From assembly GCA_032128875.1 (NCBI GenBank), contig JAVLKG010000007.1, positions 298,496 to 362,495 of the forward strand: 64,000 nt of DNA, read 5' to 3'. This DNA is from Candidatus Melainabacteria bacterium 17Bon1m. Lineage in GTDB: Bacteria > Cyanobacteriota > Vampirovibrionia > Obscuribacterales > Obscuribacteraceae. The translations under genes were made by a program, and so were the position numbers. The notes beneath the pieces are model-generated. The model was not told the origin of the DNA and ran no database searches. It saw nothing but the letters and a program-made list of their open reading frames with translations. Shown here in pieces: positions 102-9,210 of the stretch. Numbering within the stretch: the stretch's first letter is position 1; every line of letters begins with the position of its first letter.

Positions 102-145
102 GCGCATCCACTCCGAAAAACCGGGATTTTTCGGAGTGGATGCGC
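102..145. repeat. Perfect 19-bp-arm palindrome, member of a dispersed repeat family
   Basis: gcgcatccactccgaaaaa-ccggga-tttttcggagtggatgcgc; the core recurs at 46103-46128 and 46235-46263. Confidence 0.85.
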
Positions 146-197: not shown

Positions 198-1187
198 ATG
201 GTTTCTGAAAAACTTACAGAGTATTCGGTAAACGTAATGGCGTTGGCGCGCATGGAAGCCGAACGCACCGGCAGCGCGAGTGTTGATGTTGAACATATTT
301 TTTTGGGTCTGCTAGGCGAGGCGTATGGTGTTGCGTCTGAGGTGTTGCGCAAGAATGGACTTCAATTGCACGGTGTTCGAGAGCAAATGTGCGAACAAAC
401 AAAAGAAGAACGTTTGGCTCAAAAAGGCAATTATTCTTTCAGCATTAAAGCTGCGAAAATCCTCAATTCTGCGCTTGAATTTGCGGTTCAAATGGAGAAT
501 GAAAACATAGACACAGAGCACCTCTTGCTTGCTGTTCTTGCGGAAAAGAATTGGAAAGTTCAGAGAATATTTGACGACTTTGGGGTTGACGCAAATAGGT
601 TGCGCAGTGATGTTGGGAAGGTTGTGCATGAGCGAGAGTTGAATCCGGCATCCGCTGAGGATGCTGGTTTTGAAGAAGCGCCTCGCAAGAAGAGAGCAAT
701 ATCTCCGACCGCGGAGTATTCTTGGCCTTCTACAACGCCGATGTTCTCTCACTTTAATGACTCTGCGATTAAAGTGGTTATGAGGGCGCAAGAAGAAGCA
801 AGGCGCCTCGGCCACAATTTTGTTGGTACGGAGCAGCTATTGCTTGGTGTTATACCGGACAATGGTTTAGCGGGTAAAGTATTTCGAGATTTAGGCATCA
901 CCCTTATTGCTGCTCGTCGTGAAGTTGAGAAAATCATCGGACACGGTTCTGGTTTTGTTGCTGTAGAAATACCTTTCACTCCGCGTGCCAAGGGGCTTTT
1001 GGTCGGTGCAATAGACGAAGCTCGCAGTCGTGGTTCTGAAATAATCGGAGCAGAACATATTTTGCTGTCGTTACTCGCCGAGGAAAATTGTGTTAGTACT
1101 CATGTCTTGCAAAATCTAGATGTGGACGCTGGAAAAGCCCGTGGAAACTTGCACAATGCTATGCGACGACCTGTTGTGGATGAGTGA
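198..1187 (+). CDS. Stand-alone Clp protease N-terminal domain protein (two Clp-N modules, no AAA+)
   Basis: [50 protein letters not shown]; no Walker A/B. Confidence 0.9.
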
Positions 1188-1191
1188 CTCA

Positions 1192-2031
1192 ATGTTCGAT
1201 AAATTCAGCAAGGATGCAATTAAAGTGGTCATGCAAGCGCTTGATGAGGCGCGCGTGTTTAAGCACAAAGAAGTAGGATCAGAGCATCTGCTTCTGGGTG
1301 TTTTCGCCTTTTGTGGCGATTCTATTTCGAAGGGTTTTCCGTACCTGGAAGGTGTCGATCTCGATCAACTGCGTGATGCAGTTAGAAATGTGAATCCGAA
1401 GGGCTCCAAAGCTAGCCCCGCCGAGCTTCCATTTAGTGACGAAGCCAAGGAGATACTCGTAAGTGCTTATCAAAAGTCTGGTCACAGCTTGATTTACTCA
1501 CGACACATTTTACTTTCGATGCTTGATAAGCAGAATAGTGTTGGAGTAAAGGTTCTCGAAATGCTTGGCGTTGACCTGGCTCCAGGAGCCGGGGGAAGCG
1601 AAGACGAGCAGTCCGCAGCTGTCCTTAAATGTGCTCGGGAGGAGGCTCGAAGACTCGGACACAATTTTGTAGGTACTGAGCAGATTTTGCTCGGATTGAT
1701 ACTTTGCAGGGGAAGTGTCGGCGCGGTTTTAAGTAGGTTTGGAATTGAGGTTGGGTGGGCTCGACAAGAAGTCGAAAAGATCATTGGTCGCGGCTCTGGT
1801 TTTGTGTCCGTCGAAATTCCATTCACTCCGCGAGCCAGGAAAGTGCTGGAATTTGCCTGGGATGAGGCTCGTCAACTAGGACACAATTACATTGGAAATG
1901 AACATTTGATGCTTGGGATTCTTCGTGATGATACCAGCGTTGCGGCTCAGATTTTGAAAGCGGCTCAAGTCAACACCGAGGAATTAAGAGCTGCTATCCT
2001 TGCTCTTTTCGATCAGCCAGAGGAAGCGTGA
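1192..2031 (+). CDS. Stand-alone Clp N-terminal domain protein (two modules)
   Basis: Starts MFDKFSKDAIKV (alternative ATG at 1180); [34 protein letters not shown]; no ATPase. Confidence 0.9.
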   Translation: MFDKFSKDAIKVVMQALDEARVFKHKEVGSEHLLLGVFAFCGDSISKGFPYLEGVDLDQLRDAVRNVNPKGSKASPAELPFSDEAKEILVSAYQKSGHSLIYSRHILLSMLDKQNSVGVKVLEMLGVDLAPGAGGSEDEQSAAVLKCAREEARRLGHNFVGTEQILLGLILCRGSVGAVLSRFGIEVGWARQEVEKIIGRGSGFVSVEIPFTPRARKVLEFAWDEARQLGHNYIGNEHLMLGILRDDTSVAAQILKAAQVNTEELRAAILALFDQPEEA

Positions 2032-2040
2032 GGCGATTCC

Positions 2041-2949
2041 GTGTTCGATAAATTTAGCAAGGATGCAATCAAAGTGATTATGCAAGCGCAGGAAGAAGCG
2101 CGCATGCTGAAACAGCAAGAAGTAGGTTGCGAGCATTTGCTACTGGGAGCTTTTGCTTCTGAAGTGGATTGTTTGCCTGTAGAGTCTGCCAACTCTCGTG
2201 ACGGTACCCTAGAGAAACTTAGGGCTTCGTTTTCGCAACGAGTGAAGAAGGGCGCCAAGCCTAGCCCGAAAGAATTACCGTTTGACGATGATGCAAAGCG
2301 CGTGCTAGTCAGTGCGTATCAAATTTCAGGGCACAAAACGATTTGTGCAAGTCACATTTTTCTGGCGCTGTTTGATTTTCCAGCAATACTGAATGTCTTT
2401 CGCGATACGAAAATTGACGCGAACGAGTTGCGCTACGCCCTGGTTTATCAAACGCAATTCCACGGGGGGCTGCAAGTTGTTGATGGTTCCTCTGTTTCGC
2501 AGCAAGAAGCCATGGAGCTCTGTCGAGATATCTCAGATGTGATTAGCTTTGCAGTTGCTGAAAGACATAATTTCAAGCAGAAGCATTTGAGTTCTGAGCT
2601 CCTTTTGCTTGGACTTATTCATGCTGGTGGCATGCCCGCTAAAATTTTGGAGAACGCTGGAGTTACGCTGGATTCGGCGCGCGAGCATTTTGTGAAACTG
2701 ATTGGTGAAGCTGCTGAACCAGCAGTGGTGGAAGTAAAACTGCAGTTTACTCCGCGTGCCAAGAAGCTATTGCACAATGCCAAGGAAGAAGCGTTTCAGT
2801 TGGGACAGGATAAACTGAAAGGACTGCACCTTTTGCTCGGATTCACCCATGAGCAAGATGGTGTTGCTTGGCAAGTCTTGCGAGAAAATGGCGTAGATTT
2901 AGCAGCATTGCGAGCGTCTGTGCTAGCTTTATTTGAGGAGACACGTTAG
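2041..2949 (+). CDS. Stand-alone Clp N-terminal domain protein (two modules, diverged)
   Basis: GTG start; N-terminus nearly identical to the previous gene; FTPRAKKLL..AKEEA motif. Confidence 0.85.
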   Translation: MFDKFSKDAIKVIMQAQEEARMLKQQEVGCEHLLLGAFASEVDCLPVESANSRDGTLEKLRASFSQRVKKGAKPSPKELPFDDDAKRVLVSAYQISGHKTICASHIFLALFDFPAILNVFRDTKIDANELRYALVYQTQFHGGLQVVDGSSVSQQEAMELCRDISDVISFAVAERHNFKQKHLSSELLLLGLIHAGGMPAKILENAGVTLDSAREHFVKLIGEAAEPAVVEVKLQFTPRAKKLLHNAKEEAFQLGQDKLKGLHLLLGFTHEQDGVAWQVLRENGVDLAALRASVLALFEETR

Positions 2950-2960
2950 GGATTTCGCTG

Positions 2961-3410
2961 GTGTTAAAAAACTACACTGAAAGAGCTACATACTCGATTC
3001 GGCGGGCTGAGGAAGAGTCGCGTAAGATGCGACATAACTACATCGGCACTGGCATGATTCTTCTTGGAATTTTGGAAGAAGGCGGCGCGGCAAGTCGGCT
3101 ACTCAATAGTTTTGGTATTACCTACGCGGCTGCACATGAAGAGCTTGAAGCGCTCATTGGGCGAGGCTCTGGTAATCTCGCGGCTGACATTCCGTTTTCA
3201 CCAAATGCGCAAGAGGCACTGGCATTTGCGCGCAAAGAAGCAGAGTCTCGAGAGATAAAAGATGTCGCTGTTCCGCATCTGCTTTATGCGTTGCTGCATG
3301 GTAAAGATACAATGGCTATGCGCGTTTTCGATGTGATGGGAATCAACTTTGATGTGATCAGAAAAAAGGTTGCTGAAGAACTCGATAAGAATTACGGCTC
3401 GCGAAATTAG
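2961..3410 (+). CDS. Stand-alone Clp N-terminal domain protein (one module)
   Basis: YTERA..AEEESRKMRHNYIGT, IGRGSG..IPFSPNA. Confidence 0.85.
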   Translation: MLKNYTERATYSIRRAEEESRKMRHNYIGTGMILLGILEEGGAASRLLNSFGITYAAAHEELEALIGRGSGNLAADIPFSPNAQEALAFARKEAESREIKDVAVPHLLYALLHGKDTMAMRVFDVMGINFDVIRKKVAEELDKNYGSRN

Positions 3411-3430
3411 TTCGTTCGCGACTTCTTATT

Positions 3431-3700
3431 CTATTTCTTCCGGTCGAACTCTTGATAGGCTGCGCTGTCATTACGGTTTCCGACGACTGTGACATACAGC
3501 ACAGACGAATCAAATCGATAGATAATGCGAAATTCTCCAACGTCTTTCCGGAAATGTTTGCCGTTTCCCATTGATATTGAATCAGTGGGACGTGGTTCAT
3601 CGCACAACTCAGTAATTGCTTTTAGTATCTGCAAAAACTGTTTGTTGTCGCGCTTTTTCAAGAAACGCATTGCGTCATTTGTTAGGTCTGGTTTTAGCAT
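3431..3700 (-). CDS. RelE/ParE-family type II toxin
   Basis: 89 aa, basic; FRKDVGEFRIIY..VTVVGNRND..Y; overlaps the upstream antitoxin. Confidence 0.85.
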   Translation of the reverse strand: MLKPDLTNDAMRFLKKRDNKQFLQILKAITELCDEPRPTDSISMGNGKHFRKDVGEFRIIYRFDSSVLYVTVVGNRNDSAAYQEFDRKK

Positions 3701-3947
3701 CGCGAGTCAGTTTTTCCTTGATGAAACTGGCAGTCGCTTCGGTACCAATGTAACCAGTCTTTTCTGCTACTTCGATTCGTGCCAACCAATAGTCGTTTTC
3801 AAGCTGCATCAGATGCTCGTAATCGGCCTGAGCGATCATAACTGCAACAGGGCGGCCATTTTTCTCGATTGAGATTGGCTCCTTTTGTGCCGCGGCAATC
3901 GCTTCACTCGTTTTGTTTTTTAGTTCTGTTGCGGTGATTCGTTTCAT
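3675..3947 (-). CDS. Phd/YefM-family antitoxin
   Basis: ITATELKNK..EPISIEKNGRPVAVMI..DYE. Confidence 0.9.
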   Translation of the reverse strand: MKRITATELKNKTSEAIAAAQKEPISIEKNGRPVAVMIAQADYEHLMQLENDYWLARIEVAEKTGYIGTEATASFIKEKLTRDAKTRPNK

Positions 3948-3987
3948 TTAAGTCGGACTATCAAGTTGCCTGTTGTGTATATATTGT

Positions 3988-4018
3988 CTATTTTGTTCAA
4001 AATAGCTATTTATGTCAA
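3988..4018 (-). promoter_or_regulatory. TA promoter with overlapping palindromic operator
   Basis: TTGACA (4018-4013), 17 nt, CAAAAT; palindrome ctattttg-tt-caaaatag at 3988-4005 overlaps the -10. Confidence 0.6.
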
Positions 4019-4084
4019 ATTTATTGCACCGCCTGACTTTTGGGGTTTAACCTGGATACTAAGCGTGATAGTAATACGAGGGGC

Positions 4085-4132
4085 AAAAAAAGAGGTGTCG
4101 CGTGTAGATTGCTCCACAAACGACACCCCTTT
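4085..4132 (-). terminator. Intrinsic terminator of the icd operon
   Basis: Stem gaggtgtcg/cgacacccc followed by a U7 tract on the minus strand. Confidence 0.65.
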
Positions 4133-4234
4133 GCCAGGTTTGGCTGAAACTCCATCAACCTGACGCTTCATGTGGTTAGTCTAAAGCGATGCGTCAGGTT
4201 GACGTGTCAGCGTGCCGAGGGCTCAGCTTGAGCT

Positions 4235-4588
4235 TTAGCCAGCATTCGCGTCCAGCTCGGCGATGAGGCGCTCGAGCTTTTCGACGCGTTTGCAAGCGGC
4301 GGTATACGCACCCTGCGCGGCCGCATAGCGGACGCGATAGGGATTGTGCCGATAGCCCCATTTGAAGCTCGAGTAGAGCCTCGTCATGTGGGCGCGGTGC
4401 TCGCGAGCGACTGCGCGATCGGTCTTCGCCTTGATGAGTGCCTCGCGCCGTTCGGCGGAGTTCATCGCACGGAAGCGAGCCGTTTCGGCTTCGTCAGCCT
4501 TGCGGTACTCGCGTTCGAGGTAGAAGTGAAAACCGACCAGCGCCGCTACAGGGAGCAGCGCGGCGGCGATGATGAAGATTGTGGTCAT
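4235..4588 (-). CDS. Hypothetical protein, N-terminal TM anchor plus coiled coil
   Basis: Hydrophobic N-terminus, GGAG RBS, same codon bias as the operon. Confidence 0.7.
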   Translation of the reverse strand: MTTIFIIAAALLPVAALVGFHFYLEREYRKADEAETARFRAMNSAERREALIKAKTDRAVAREHRAHMTRLYSSFKWGYRHNPYRVRYAAAQGAYTAACKRVEKLERLIAELDANAG

Positions 4589-4604
4589 GTTGTTATGCTC
4601 CCGT

Positions 4605-5183
4605 TCAGAGTGTGAGTTCGTAGCAATTGAGCACGCGCTTGCGACCCTTGTACGTTCCGACCTGCTTGAAGCCGAAGCGAGGGTAGTAGGCGTTGCTGCG
4701 CATGCCGATTGGTGTCTTGAGCGCGACTTTCTCCATGCCGCGTTTACGCGACGCGGTAATCAGTTCGGTGAGGAGAAAGCTGCCGATGCCGCTGCTCTGC
4801 ATGTCTTCGGCAACGCCGATTTCATGAAGAGTGGTGGCACCATCTTGGCGGTGGTAGGCGCGCAAGAAGGCGACGATGCGCCCGTCTGCGTCGACCACCA
4901 CGCGAATGCGGTGTTGCGATTTCTCGCCGTCGGCGTTTTGATTTTTCACCGCGTCTTCGACCACCACCCTCGGCAGATAGCCGAAGGATGCGCGATTGTT
5001 CTTGCTGTTGATGATCTTGCGGATGCCGACGTAGTCTTCGACCTGGGCGTCACGCACCGTCAACTTCGTCGAGATTGTCTTCGAAGCGTTAGTTGCGCCT
5101 GTCCGGATCGTCGTCGGCAGCTTGCTGCGATGGGCGATGCAGGAAGGCCCACCAGCAAGAAGTCCGAGTTTTGATTTCGCCAT
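4605..5183 (-). CDS. GNAT-family N-acetyltransferase
   Basis: LHEIGVAEDMQSSGIGSFLL (motif A), NAYYPRFGF (motif B); GAGGAG RBS. Confidence 0.85.
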   Translation of the reverse strand: MAKSKLGLLAGGPSCIAHRSKLPTTIRTGATNASKTISTKLTVRDAQVEDYVGIRKIINSKNNRASFGYLPRVVVEDAVKNQNADGEKSQHRIRVVVDADGRIVAFLRAYHRQDGATTLHEIGVAEDMQSSGIGSFLLTELITASRKRGMEKVALKTPIGMRSNAYYPRFGFKQVGTYKGRKRVLNCYELTL

Positions 5184-5198
5184 TGTCGTCTCCTCTGG

Positions 5199-5837
5199 TT
5201 AGCCTTCGAGCGCCGCTGCGAGCATGCGGTCGTAGGTGACGCGCCGTTCGTAGTCCGTCTTGGGCGGGTTGTAGGGCAGCGCATCCGTGTAGATACGGGC
5301 GAAGTCGCCGGCTTGCGCCTTGCGAATTCGAGCGTTCCACACCTTGATGAGCTGGGCGGCGCAGGCGTCGGGCAGCGGTTCGCGGCGAGTGCGAAACTTG
5401 CTGGCGAAGCGACCCATCCAGCCGTTGCGGCGGACGTTCTCGAAGATTTGAACAATCTCGGGCACGTCGCTCACGCCGGCGGTGCTGATGATGAAGGGCG
5501 CCTTCTCATAGCGGAACGGCATGGTGCTGCCGTTTGCGCCGGGGGCGTCGGAATTTTGTGCGACTTGCCAGCGAATCTCGCTGCGATCGGAGTAGGGAAA
5601 CGGTGTCACCGGCGGTGTCAGGTAAACCAGCTTGAAGCCGGCGTCACCACCCTGGACAAACGCGATGCGAGCGCCTTTCAGCTCGTGCACCTTCTTGGGG
5701 TGCATGAGGTTGGTCTTGTGGCATCCGGTCAAACCGAAGCTGCCGAATTCCCAAAAGGGATCCGAGCGCATCTCGGTGGGGCGCTCCATGTGCGGCTGCC
5801 GGAGCAGCGCGACGAGCACTGTCTGCTTCTTGGGCAT
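5199..5837 (-). CDS. Conserved hypothetical protein, possibly nucleotide-modification-associated (Nmad2-like)
   Basis: DPFWEFGSFGLTGCH resembles, from memory, the Nmad2 NPF..TL.TC motif; start may be 5849. Confidence 0.5.
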   Translation of the reverse strand: MPKKQTVLVALLRQPHMERPTEMRSDPFWEFGSFGLTGCHKTNLMHPKKVHELKGARIAFVQGGDAGFKLVYLTPPVTPFPYSDRSEIRWQVAQNSDAPGANGSTMPFRYEKAPFIISTAGVSDVPEIVQIFENVRRNGWMGRFASKFRTRREPLPDACAAQLIKVWNARIRKAQAGDFARIYTDALPYNPPKTDYERRVTYDRMLAAALEG

Positions 5838-5940
5838 GTTTCTCTCCATGAGTTTGTTATGAAAGGAGAGCCACCGCGACTTAACGCGATGGCTCTCGGT
5901 TACTTAGACAAACCGCACAGAGAGGCGCTCTGCGCGATTA

Positions 5941-7494
5941 CTACGCTTCTTTGGCGGCGTTTTCGCCCACCTTCTCCACCTTCTCGGCGACCTTCTCGGC
6001 GACGATGACGCCGGTCGTGTCCGGGAATGGCACCGCCGCACCGAGCTTTCCGTCTGCATCTTCGAGCAGCCAGCAGTGCCCGTTGTAGCGGTTTTCCTCG
6101 ATCCACGGATTGAGGTAGCTGTCGCAGTGCACGACTTTGTAGCCGAGCGCGACCAGCTCTTTGTGCCATTCGTCGGTGGTCCAGACGCCGAACTCCTCGT
6201 TGACTTCCATCGCCCAGTTGGCGAGGTAGTCTTTCTTCGAGAGGAATTCGTTGGCTTCGTGCAGCGTCATGCGGAAGTGCGTGACGCCGTCGAAGACTCG
6301 CTCGTCGTAAGCGAAGCCGGGTTTCGCCGACTTGCCTTTGAACTCGCGGGCGAACTTGCGGAAGCGCTCCTCGAGTTCTGCGTCCTTGCAACGCAGCCAA
6401 ACAAGGCGGTCGCCGTTTTCTGGTTTCACACCATCGCGAATGATGATGCGCCCACCCACCATCAGTTCCAACCAGGCGTTCTTCAACGCCAGCCGGATCT
6501 GGTCACGGTCGTAGCCGTTGTACGAGTACACCTCGTGCATGACCGACGAGAAGATGATGGTCGACACCGTCCCTTCAGCGAAGCGCTTGTGGATGATGTT
6601 GCCCATCACAACTGCGACGTTGTGGTTGGGATAATGCTGACCTTCCGAGCGGTGCAGCAGGTCACGCGACAGGTCCATGCCGACGATCTGCGCCTTCGGA
6701 TAGAGGTTCGACAGATGAATCAGCAGGGTGCCAGTGCCGCAGCCTTTGTCGACGATGTAGCCGCCGACAATCCAGGGGCAAATGTCCTGAATCTTCACCG
6801 ATAAGCTGGCGTCCATGCCCTCGCTGTAGACGGCGAAGTCACGACCGTGCGACAGTTCGCCGTCGTCGTTGAGCAGCACGTCGCTGAAGAGCGTAGCGAT
6901 ACGCTCTTCGACTTGGTGGCTTTCGAAGACCGCAGCAGTCTCTGCCGTTGCCAGCTTTCGCCAGTCGCCGCGAGTCGCCACTGCCTGAAGCAGGTCGATG
7001 GGCAGCTTGCCGGCGGTGCTGGGCACGATCGCCTTGTAACCCGCTTTGGCGAAGTGCTTGTTGACGTCCGCGTTGGACGAGACGAGCACCGTGTTGGCGG
7101 GCGTGAGGACGGTCGTTTCGTCCGACTCCGACTTCACGACGTCGCAGATGTGCGCCGTCCAAGCCAGTGAATCGGGGATATCCGCGGCAGCATGGATTTC
7201 GTACGGGCGCCCGAGCTTCTTCGCGAAGCCCTCAGCGATGAGCTTGCGCTCGTTGCTGTAGAGCGGGTGCCGCTTGGTGCCGCCTTGCCCGTCCGCCGTG
7301 ATGACGAAGACCAGCTTGCCGGGAACGTGCTTGAGGGCACGCTTGAGCGAGCGTTCCTGGTCTTTGGTGACGCCATGCCAGCGTCCCACGAGGAGCAGAT
7401 ACTCGGGCTTCACGCCGAGGGCTGCGGTTATCGCCGTGCCGAGAGCTCCCTTCGGAGCGGGTCGGGGCGATTTCTTTACATGAGTCGTGCGCAT
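5941..7494 (-). CDS. Fusion of a degenerate NadM/NMNAT-like domain and a class I SAM methyltransferase
   Basis: N-term LLVGRWH..GTKRHPL..ER..DIPD..W; C-term IVDKGCGTG, GMDLS, FSSVMHE, GGRIIIRD; AGGAG RBS before 7494. Confidence 0.75.
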   Translation of the reverse strand: MRTTHVKKSPRPAPKGALGTAITAALGVKPEYLLLVGRWHGVTKDQERSLKRALKHVPGKLVFVITADGQGGTKRHPLYSNERKLIAEGFAKKLGRPYEIHAAADIPDSLAWTAHICDVVKSESDETTVLTPANTVLVSSNADVNKHFAKAGYKAIVPSTAGKLPIDLLQAVATRGDWRKLATAETAAVFESHQVEERIATLFSDVLLNDDGELSHGRDFAVYSEGMDASLSVKIQDICPWIVGGYIVDKGCGTGTLLIHLSNLYPKAQIVGMDLSRDLLHRSEGQHYPNHNVAVVMGNIIHKRFAEGTVSTIIFSSVMHEVYSYNGYDRDQIRLALKNAWLELMVGGRIIIRDGVKPENGDRLVWLRCKDAELEERFRKFAREFKGKSAKPGFAYDERVFDGVTHFRMTLHEANEFLSKKDYLANWAMEVNEEFGVWTTDEWHKELVALGYKVVHCDSYLNPWIEENRYNGHCWLLEDADGKLGAAVPFPDTTGVIVAEKVAEKVEKVGENAAKEA

Positions 7495-7642
7495 AGTTTT
7501 TCTCCTGCAAAGGAATACGGCATTTTCGTGCCGAATTAGACACGACACCGATGGAGCAAATTCATCGCTGAACTTGCAACCATCGGGTCGTATCCGGTGG
7601 TCGTCCTGGCGGACCTGACGACCACCCGGTCGCAGGCTCGCC

Positions 7643-8953
7643 TTACTTGCGAATCGCCTTCTTGCCCTTCAGCGCGGCTTCCACCGTGCGTCGGGTCGGC
7701 TTCACCATGTTGGCGATGACCGCGTCCGTGAACTTCACCGTGCCGACCTGGTTGCCGTTCTTCATGAACCGCGCCAGATCTCCGGTGGCAGTCTTCGAAC
7801 GCAGCGTCTTCTCGATGGCGCGAGTGACGCACACGGCGGCCTCGTCCCAGTCGATGTACTCCAGCATCATGACGCCGGAGAGGGTGAGCGAGCAGGGGTT
7901 CGAGATACCCTTGCCGGCGATGTCGGGCGCGGTGCCGTGCGTGGCTTCGAACATGGCGCTCTTGGCGCCGATGTTGGCGCCCGGAGCGATGCCCAGTCCG
8001 CCCACTTGACCGGCTGCGTCGTCCGAGATGTAGTCGCCGTTGAGGTTCGTGGTCGCGATGACCGAGAACTGAGTCGGCTTGCAGAGCAGCTCGTAGAACG
8101 TGGCGTCGGCGATGCGGTGGTTGAGCAGGATCTTGCCTTCCGGCAGCTTGCCGCCATGCACCTTCCAGAGGTCGTCCTCCGACACCATGATGTCGCCGAA
8201 CTCCTCAGCCGCAAGCTCCAGACCCCACTTCAGGAACGCGCCTTCGGTGTGCTTCTGGATGTTGCCCTTGTGTACGATGGTCACGACTTTGCGGCCATGG
8301 TCGATGGCGAACTCGATTGCTGCACGCACGATGCGGCGCGAAGCATACTTCGAAATCGGCTTGATGCCGATGCCGGAGTCTTCGCGGATTTCGTGACCGT
8401 ACTTGCGAGCAACGGCGATGATCTCTCGCGCGCCTTCGGAGCCGGCCTCGAACTCGATGCCCGCATACACGTCTTCCGTGTTCTCGCGGAAGATGACCAC
8501 GTCCAGGTCCTGCGGGCGCTTCACCACGGACACGATGCCCTTGAAGTAGCGCACAGGACGGACGCAGCTGTACCAGTCGAAGTGCTGGCGCATGGTCACG
8601 TTCAGGCTGCGGATGCCGCCGCCGGTGGGTGTGCCGAGTGGTCCCTTCATGCCGATGCCGTAGTAGTCGAGCATCTCCAGGGTTTCGGCCGGCAGGGGGC
8701 TGCCGAACTTCGCCACTGCTGCGTCACCAGCGTAAGCCGGCAACCAGGTGATGCTTCGTTTGTCGCCATAGCATTTCGCCACGGCGGCGTTGATGATGCG
8801 ACGAGTCGCTTCCGAGATTTCCGAGCCGATGCCATCGCCGTCGATGAACGGAATGATGGGGCGGGTCGGTTTCACGGCTTTGCCGTCCACGAGCTGGATG
8901 ATTTCACCAGCCGGGGCGGGCTCGCCGTAGAACTTTCTGACAGGTTTTGACAT
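7643..8953 (-). CDS. icd: Isocitrate dehydrogenase, prokaryotic type I, NAD+-type signature
   Basis: GDGIG, KGPLGTPTGGGIRSLNV, FRENTEDVY, VHKGNI, NLNGDYISD, FEATHGTAPDIAG. Confidence 0.93.
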   Translation of the reverse strand: MSKPVRKFYGEPAPAGEIIQLVDGKAVKPTRPIIPFIDGDGIGSEISEATRRIINAAVAKCYGDKRSITWLPAYAGDAAVAKFGSPLPAETLEMLDYYGIGMKGPLGTPTGGGIRSLNVTMRQHFDWYSCVRPVRYFKGIVSVVKRPQDLDVVIFRENTEDVYAGIEFEAGSEGAREIIAVARKYGHEIREDSGIGIKPISKYASRRIVRAAIEFAIDHGRKVVTIVHKGNIQKHTEGAFLKWGLELAAEEFGDIMVSEDDLWKVHGGKLPEGKILLNHRIADATFYELLCKPTQFSVIATTNLNGDYISDDAAGQVGGLGIAPGANIGAKSAMFEATHGTAPDIAGKGISNPCSLTLSGVMMLEYIDWDEAAVCVTRAIEKTLRSKTATGDLARFMKNGNQVGTVKFTDAVIANMVKPTRRTVEAALKGKKAIRK

Positions 8954-9210
8954 TTTTCGGACTCCTTTCGTCAGAGTTTTTCAACGAAGAACAGTTGGTC
9001 CGTTGTGACTCGCGTAAGGACGCGCGAGCTGAACAACGGACCGGACAGGCTTTCAGCTAATGGTCGATAGTCAACGCTCGGAGGAATACCCGAGAGAATT
9101 GCCGAAACGATGGTTGGGACTACGTTGTCGGTGTTTGTCTGACTAAAAGCTCCAAGAGTTGAAAGAAAAGAGATACAGCTATGACCCTAGTAGGTTTTAG
9201 GCAATGTCAA
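8954..9210 (-). promoter_or_regulatory. Promoter-like motif and structured 5' leader of the icd operon
   Basis: TTGACA-N17-GGGTCATAGCT (9210-9177); hairpin ggtccgttgt/acaacggacc at 8997-9042; AAGGAG RBS. Confidence 0.55.

Follow-up and report, generated by a model that had tools for sequence, protein, structure and literature searches.

What use could a bacterium have for four adjacent genes that encode the receptor head of a Clp chaperone, in several copies, and nothing of its motor? The question is raised by a window (the whole stretch of DNA analyzed here, 64,000 nucleotides) from the genome of Candidatus Melainabacteria bacterium 17Bon1m (G000:C7:298496-362495; the G000 assembly measures 7.55 Mb in 35 contigs and is 93.2% complete), which opens with four such genes, g1 to g4. 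The N-terminal domain (NTD) of ClpC, its "head", is the dock for adaptors, for phosphoarginine-tagged or unfolded substrates and for antibacterial peptides; it forms the entry gate of an essential protease, and several classes of antibiotics, as well as at least one phage protein, act on it. We find that g1–g4 are free-standing ClpC N-domain paralogues rather than the debris of a broken clpC, and that their locus is a hotspot of divergence and turnover beside an invariant ClpC head.

The four genes lie on the forward strand at window positions 198–1187 (g1, 329 amino acids (aa)), 1192–2031 (g2, 279 aa), 2041–2949 (g3, 302 aa, GTG start) and 2961–3410 (g4, 149 aa, GTG start). Spacers of 4, 9 and 11 nucleotides (nt) separate g1/g2, g2/g3 and g3/g4, purine-rich stretches stand directly 5′ of each start, and the layout is, judged from these sequence features, that of one operon. 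In the list of open reading frames (ORFs), the g2 frame extends back to position 1120 (1120–2031) and overlaps g1; the true start is most likely the ATG at 1192, giving 279 aa, because the opening MFDKFS is shared with g3 and with the g2 orthologue of a related genome (G011), and a 279-aa gene call exists in the protein collection.

A Pfam scan of the four proteins returned Clp_N (PF02861) alone, with E-values of 3.7e-44, 4e-41, 2.4e-25 and 2.1e-21 for 4, 4, 3 and 2 repeats, and with scores of 76–149 bits against a gathering threshold of 20.7 bits. Pfam defines the Clp_N domain by two tandem repeats of ~53 residues; a profile built from the modules themselves divides the proteins 2+2+2+1, that is, into seven N-domains of ~145 aa each, and these modules with their short linkers make up the whole length of the proteins. 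Module 1A (residues 2–147) and module 1B (182–326) of g1 are joined by a disordered linker (151–176), g2 holds modules 2A and 2B, g3 holds 3A and 3B, and g4 is a single module. Against NCBIfam, the proteins matched the first ~150 positions of the ClpA/B/V models, far under the cut-offs. A tblastn search for remnants of the AAA+ body in C7:296000-304500, queried with the AAA+ regions of the ClpC and ClpB that this genome encodes, gave a best E-value of 0.38, compared with E = 0 for the same query at the clpC locus as a positive control, and no Walker A motif (G..G.GK[ST]) is present in the six frames of the locus. The description given in the initial annotation, of four close genes made only of Clp-N modules, seven in total and lacking Walker motifs, is thereby borne out.

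Among structures in the PDB, all seven modules are nearest to the NTDs of ClpC or ClpC1 (g1B to 5gui, E = 2e-44; g4, E = 1.3e-26; g1A to 6cn8, E = 4.1e-20), with chains of ClpT1, ClpT2 and ClpC2 scoring far below them. Identity to the genome's own ClpC NTD is 57% for g1B and 55% for g2B, followed by g3B (38%), g2A (36%), g4 (36%), g3A (33%) and g1A (31%). The two closest modules, g1B and g2B, are those in which the near-canonical ClpC sequence had been noticed at the outset, and both carry GHNFVGTEQ and IPFTPRA. In a FastTree tree of the modules, 2A falls within the clade of 3A modules and 2B groups as the sister of 3B, which points to g2 as a tandem duplicate of g3.

The predicted folds agree with these assignments. 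AlphaFold2 models g3 with a mean predicted local distance difference test (pLDDT) score of 87.6 and a predicted template-modeling (pTM) score of 0.80, as two modules packed into a single compact body through a helical linker; g1 (mean pLDDT 80.0, pTM 0.56) is modeled as two good domains separated by residues 151–176, which fall below a pLDDT of 50. Foldseek returned only single-module matches for g3, to NTDs of ClpC and ClpC1 (TMt 0.82–0.88, TMq at most 0.43), and found no solved chain spanning both modules; matches to ClpC NTDs, ligand-bound structures included, superimpose with a root-mean-square deviation of 1.4–2.2 Å. The array modules thus share the double-repeat helical fold of the ClpC/ClpC1 NTDs (5gui from Arabidopsis; 6cn8 and 3wdb from M. 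tuberculosis; 5hbn from B. subtilis), but they lack the AAA+ body and occur free or paired. In g4, an alignment of 9 sequences further reveals an invariant surface on repeat 2 and a C-terminal EELDxxYGxR tail.

The modules also depart from ClpC in the ligand pockets. The phosphoarginine (pArg) pockets of the S. aureus ClpC NTD are described as T7/E32 and T81/E106, with K85 as a contact to AAA1 (excerpts of PMC12583610). Modules g1B and g2B keep T81 and E106 of pocket 2, and g1B additionally retains the equivalents of F2, F80 and K85; g1A keeps T6, E31 and E106, and thus both glutamates. In g2A and g3A, the S/E pair is retained in pocket 1 only, g3B retains E31 and T81 while E106 is lost, and g4 has lost both pocket glutamates. 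Relative to ClpC, one or both pocket glutamates are missing from five of the seven modules, and the variant motifs reported earlier are all present: DVEH in g1A, GCEH in g3A, SSEL and KGLH in g3B, and GTGM and AVPH in g4. The pocket signature is constant within each orthologue group (for g4, in 5 to 6 of 6 orthologues), indicating that the modules are specialized rather than decaying.

An orthologous array, with frames intact, occupies the same position in seven of the 12 other genomes of the genus; the five that lack it are 64–86% complete. Nonsynonymous differences (pN) are far fewer than synonymous differences (pS) in all 21+3+15+21 orthologue pairs. Ratios of nonsynonymous to synonymous substitution rates (dN/dS), calculated by the Nei-Gojobori method and taken from pairs with unsaturated dS, are 0.070 (G000-G011) and 0.077 (G009-G004) for g1, 0.14 for g2, 0.13–0.15 for g3 (0.27–0.31 in pairs including G000), and 0.034 (G011-G007) and 0.046 (G009-G004) for g4. 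The four genes are therefore intact and under purifying selection, with dN/dS of 0.03–0.31. The initial annotation had named two outcomes that would speak against a functional array, AAA+ remnants of a broken clpC in other frames, and a dN/dS near 1 with no expression; the searches gave no such remnants, and the dN/dS values lie well below 1.

The locus diverges far faster than its surroundings. Between G000 and G011, nucleotide identity is 90–97% in the flanks, falls to 48–83% exactly across the array and recovers after it. The flanking proteins of this pair are 92–99% identical (dN 0.015–0.032, dS 0.13–0.45), as opposed to 85, 78, 53 and 57% for g1 to g4 (dN 0.087–0.40, dS from 0.88 to saturation). 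The array also diverges far faster than the genuine ClpC head: the 146-aa ClpC NTD is 100% identical in G000 and the six other genomes of the family that were compared, which span several genera, and 93–99% identical in three more, whereas the free modules are 46–92% identical within the genus. Since sliding windows gave no clear pN > pS (see below), we use the term hotspot with no claim of positive selection. The raised dS indicates alleles that are older than their flanks or imported, and not simply faster amino-acid change.

Gene content turns over as well, differing in six of the seven orthologous loci examined, with 5 to 8 modules per species. G011 carries g1-g2-g3-g4 with a full-length g2; G007 carries an extra g1-like gene, g1, half of g2, g3 and g4; in G006 and G004 the order is g1-g3-g4, and in G002 it is g1-like, g1 and g4, with g2 not found in these three loci; and G009 carries g1, g3, a diverged g2-like gene, a toxin-antitoxin pair and g4. 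Apart from G012, g4 is present in all of the loci examined (six of seven). A match between seven modules and the ClpP heptamer was considered and dropped because of this spread in module number.

The linker of g1 carries a feature of its own. At residues 160–180 (window 675–737, forward strand), it bears the motif R(K/R)xR..SPTAEY(S/A)WPSxTPxF, mostly within the low-pLDDT segment. SPTAEY, WPS, TP and F are invariant in all seven aligned g1 orthologues of the genus, while the preceding part of the linker is variable. The motif recurs in 28 database proteins of the g1 family and, among g1–g4, is confined to g1. To our reading, it is similar to AKRxLE(L/Y)SW, with which repeat 2 of the ClpC NTD begins, and it may be a relic of a lost module, retained as a short binding motif.

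Beyond the genus, ATPase-less Clp_N proteins are abundant. Searches with g1 and g3 returned 5774 of 8000 scored database candidates at E <= 1e-10 (180–576 aa) and 5422 of 8000 at E <= 1e-5, respectively. Nearly all of the g1 relatives among the matches listed consist of Clp_N only; they come from cyanobacteria, Ktedonobacteria and others, and those with names are mostly called "Clp protease N-terminal domain-containing protein". A search with g4, run with no limits on length, yielded 17,501 representatives at E <= 0.001, with multi-module proteins of up to 1762 aa as top matches. One Clp_N-only protein of 1762 aa has 12 Pfam repeats, others measure 1375 and 1064 aa, and in some relatives a double Clp_N module is fused to TIR_2, EAD1 or EAD7 (giant and fused proteins: P0226, P0241, P0229, P0072, P0104 and P0063). 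TIR and EAD are domains of conflict systems, in which ClpN repeats are described as standing in place of a beta-propeller (excerpts of PMC7159879). These fusions argue that the Clp_N module is used as the binding part of conflict systems. The uncharacterized multi-Clp_N proteins of the databases share the ATPase-less, multi-module build of the array, but a genus-specific operon of four genes, the linker motif of g1 and the behavior as a divergence island are described only for the present locus.

Phages, one party to such conflicts, encode free ClpC-NTD-like modules, too. Matches reach E = 4.5e-45 to phrog_35667, 22 phage records carry Clp_N proteins, and identity to ORFs of the Mycobacterium phages Myrna (gp251) and Phabba is 41–45%; in contrast to the array, the phage genes occur as single copies and in phages of other host phyla. 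A search for related loci outside Melainabacteria found full-length ClpC only. In other orders of the class, we observed a three-module Clp_N protein of 454–490 aa. Two small genomes encode 454–455-aa versions of it in a housekeeping context (L050:2863-6738 in G031; L051:1706-5586 in G037), between genes that we take, from their motifs, to be ruvX-like on one side and tilS-like plus hpt-like on the other. These proteins were rejected as one-to-one orthologues of g1–g4, as each of their modules best matches the ClpC NTD or g2B.

What might the free heads do? Our preferred, though tentative, proposal is that g1–g4 are soluble, ATPase-less paralogues of the ClpC head and serve as sponges or holdases of the ClpC2 kind, taking up the ligands of the head in trans. 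Modules 1B and 2B, and partly 1A, would capture ligands that could instead dock on the invariant ClpC head; 2A, 3A, 3B and 4, with their re-specified pockets, would bind new ligands; and the proteins would then sequester, buffer or hold what they have bound. We infer these binding steps, and any effect on ClpC-ClpP proteolysis. The proposal draws on the precedent of mycobacterial ClpC2, which is reported to sequester cyclomarin and rufomycin and to bind pArg (excerpts of PMC10030653 and PMC13345244), and on the attack of the ClpC head by phage and antibiotics (excerpts of PMC6873191 and PMC12583610), including the adaptor-like targeting of ClpC by Gp53 of phage SPO1 (PMC6873191). The actinobacterial ClpC2 structures (9p2p and 8ad9) and the "Clp amino terminal domain protein" 8b9o are, like the array proteins, ATPase-less and NTD-like. 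A more specific version, which we regard as unlikely, is that the array acts as a decoy shield: because the ClpC head is frozen, at 100% identity across several genera, the cell would keep a varied, recombining repertoire of free heads that gains and loses genes and intercepts phage or competitor proteins and peptides aimed at the head. The faster divergence of the array, relative to both its flanks and ClpC, is compatible with such a role in conflict.

Several observations weigh against this proposal. Five of the seven modules are only 31–38% identical to the ClpC NTD, and a decoy of an invariant target should stay target-like. Sliding windows of 30 codons over eight gene pairs showed no clear pN > pS, with a single window in which pN is about equal to pS. 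The raised dS suggests that the alleles are old or imported and not products of fast adaptive change, and it may have arisen for reasons other than conflict. The initial proposal of a diversified array that captures substrates or adaptors, or acts as a decoy for ClpC-targeting toxins or phage proteins, is partly supported, by the re-specified pockets and by a fast locus divergence compatible with conflict; the sliding windows do not show positive selection on the pockets. PADLOC returned 0 defence families at E <= 0.01 for g1–g4 and the two upstream proteins. The housekeeping context of the three-module relatives favors a role in core proteostasis. No McsB-type arginine kinase (PF00217) was matched in G000 at its 93.2% completeness, with a control that does find the B. 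subtilis protein, and MecA was likewise not found, leaving pArg unsupported as a ligand here; a missing kinase does not exclude pArg, because mycobacteria are reported to contain it with no arginine kinase identified (excerpts of PMC13345244). Finally, RNA-Seq data (three runs from one sample) cover the locus in long contigs, at even depth over 14 kb and on both strands, a pattern indistinguishable from DNA carry-over.

Among the alternatives, accessory subunits of the plastid ClpT type deserve some weight and are, in our estimate, possible but not probable. Here, the free N-domains would dock on the ClpP/ClpR core or on an Hsp100 partner and control assembly or chaperone access. The six ClpP-family matches in the genome suggest a multi-paralogue core like that of cyanobacteria, Clp_N proteins with several modules persist throughout the class among housekeeping genes, and the invariant repeat-2 face and C-terminal tail of g4 suggest one constant partner. 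Plastid ClpT1 (4y0b, "Double Clp-N motif protein") and ClpT2 (4y0c) are themselves stand-alone N-domains of the ClpC lineage, from the cyanobacterial-plastid branch, that work on the Clp machinery with no ATPase of their own, and ClpT1 is described as attaching to the protease, binding ClpC2 and ClpD, and tuning ATPase activity (excerpts of PMC4243950). The array modules are nearer to ClpC NTDs, though, with g4 scoring E = 1.3e-26 against the ClpC1 NTD compared with 1.6e-10 for ClpT1 and 1.9e-4 for ClpT2, and g1A scoring 1.7e-4 against ClpT1, so that any ClpT-like role would be convergent; orthology of g4 to ClpT is not supported, and ClpT is single-module. Moreover, a conserved ClpP partner does not explain within-genus identities of 46–57% or the turnover of genes, and we know of no hypervariable array of ClpT. 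A function as true adaptors, each module recognizing a class of substrates and passing it to ClpC for degradation, seems less probable. The diverse, module-specific pockets would suit it, as would the beads-on-a-string build of g1, whose conserved aromatic linker motif could be a tether, and all characterized ClpC adaptors are described as working through the NTD region (excerpts of PMC12583610). Yet known adaptors bind the NTD rather than copying it, no known ClpC-binding element was found in g1–g4, and the linker motif is present in g1 only.

ClpC2 also suggests a different function, as its NTD-like domain is joined to repressor activity that responds to pArg and antibiotics (excerpts of PMC10030653 and PMC13345244). 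That g1–g4 are ligand-responsive transcriptional regulators of this type is highly improbable: ClpC2, a DNA-binding repressor, has an extra N-terminal part for dimerization and DNA binding before a single NTD-like C-terminal domain, which sets it apart from the array proteins, in which Pfam and NCBIfam find Clp_N alone, modules and short linkers fill the chain, and the multi-module proteins stand in a four-gene operon, and g1B matches 9p2p at E = 1.5e-11, against 2e-44 for ClpC1. Least credible of all are decaying fragments of a duplicated clpC or functionless annotation noise, for which the domain homology itself, and nothing more, can be cited. No AAA+ remnant scores below E = 0.38 and no Walker A motif occurs in six frames, the frames are intact in seven other genomes at dN/dS of 0.03–0.31, and the AlphaFold2 folds are confident; purifying selection and the missing AAA+ remnants refute the broken-clpC reading. 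Some explanation other than those considered here retains a minor but real share of the likelihood.

Stand-alone Clp N-domain proteins are a known kind, of which, to our knowledge, only single free heads have been studied so far, namely actinobacterial ClpC2 and plastid ClpT. What is new is a multi-gene, multi-module and fast-diverging operon: its organization, the fixed pocket proper to each module type, and an island of divergence beside an invariant target have no counterpart among these free heads. The earlier remark that no four-gene array had been described is upheld for open-access full text (supplements excluded), where we found no bacterial multi-gene Clp_N array; the locus also draws attention to the multi-Clp_N proteins of the databases, an unstudied and very numerous group with no ATPase, which may be linked to conflict systems and in which some members are joined to TIR or EAD domains. 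If sequestration or decoy function were true, the array would represent a general bacterial route for protecting or tuning Clp proteolysis, and its modules would be natural binding scaffolds for ClpC-directed ligands. A decoy shield would do in bacteria what integrated decoys do in plant immune receptors, and the fusions of Clp_N to TIR or EAD seen elsewhere would be the version of it that is coupled to effectors.

The array is not the only source of Clp_N in this genome. G000 encodes ClpC, ClpB, six ClpP-family matches and one ClpS, and, outside the array, five more free Clp_N proteins, of which one has an apparent membrane anchor; a cut-off ClpA N-domain is counted apart. With 26 Clp_N repeat matches, 12 of which fall in the array, G000 ranks at the top of 121 sampled genomes of the phylum that are >=90% complete, the next having 14. 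A 403-aa protein (G000:C3:258773-259984) combines a ClpC-like module that shares 66% identity with the ClpC NTD, a second, diverged module after YEYSW and a hydrophobic C-terminal stretch resembling a membrane anchor, and from these features would be a membrane-tethered double Clp_N protein. At G000:C2:700586-701116, clpA, which adjoins clpS, contains an in-frame TGA within the linker that leads from the N-domain to AAA1; it leaves an N-domain frame of 176 aa, with the remaining 666 aa continuing in the same frame. The short frame (166–176 aa) recurs in four of the 13 genus genomes (G000, G009, G006 and G004), whereas six have a fused frame of 812–841 aa and three have frames of 492–620 aa, which are probably cut by contig ends. 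The TGA could reflect a real split, read-through or a recurrent error.

The array and its orthologues in the genus lie between a 753-aa and a 727-aa gene upstream and GNAT, 216-aa and 535-aa genes downstream. Both upstream genes lie before the start of the window on C7 and on the forward strand; the 753-aa gene (L027:9441-11702) and the 727-aa gene (L027:12178-14361) belong to no clear family, although the latter has a borderline Amidase_5/CHAP-like C-terminus (E = 2.5e-4). They neighbor the array in at least five genomes and, unlike the array, are 97–99% identical between G000 and G011. The GC content of the array (0.475, compared with 0.499 for the genome, 17th percentile) is not unusual and so does not mark it as a horizontal island.

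A perfect hairpin, CATCCACTCCGAAAAA..TTTTTCGGAGTGGATG, lies at window 110–137 (strand not assigned), 60 nt 5′ of g1, and a second copy (C7:298464-298491) ends 5 nt before the window starts, the pair separating the operon from the upstream gene. The family, with the pattern CAT(C/G)(C/T)ACTCCGAAAAA-loop-TTTTTCGGAGT..ATG, numbers 9 copies in the 7.55-Mb genome, all intergenic and twice paired at a distance of ~140–155 nt. A heat-shock-type operator was ruled out, as the 9 copies occur at unrelated intergenic spots after gene ends, which gives them the look of a terminator or of a repeat of the REP (repetitive extragenic palindromic) type. A terminator scan rates the first copy as terminator-like in both directions, and the hairpin at 110–137 is probably a terminator, or the site of a transcript boundary, that sets the operon off from the gene before it. 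As a weak hint, contigs from the RNA libraries (three runs, one sample) end at the hairpin pair where the DNA contig continues. At the other end, an inverted repeat, TCGCGAA..TTCGCGA, followed by a T-rich run (window 3399–3440, forward strand) overlaps the g4 stop and, as read from the sequence, is the likely terminator of the operon; the consensus terminator scan does not list it.

Immediately downstream, on the reverse strand, a Phd/YefM antitoxin gene (window 3675–3947; Pfam PhdYeFM, E = 3.5e-11) overlaps an ORF for an 89-aa partner with no Pfam match (3431–3700). The pair is missing in G011, where the alignment has a gap at window 3475–4074, and is present in G009 (93% and 81% identity) within the array itself, flanked by the g2-like gene and g4. 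By its sequence and placement, it is a mobile toxin-antitoxin-like insertion that has landed twice in the locus, and no part of the array. Further downstream, the GC content rises from 0.47–0.49 in the array to 0.56–0.63 over the next 5 kb (window 4000–9000) and returns to 0.48; this segment holds the GNAT gene and ORFs of 216, 535 and 436 aa, all on the reverse strand.

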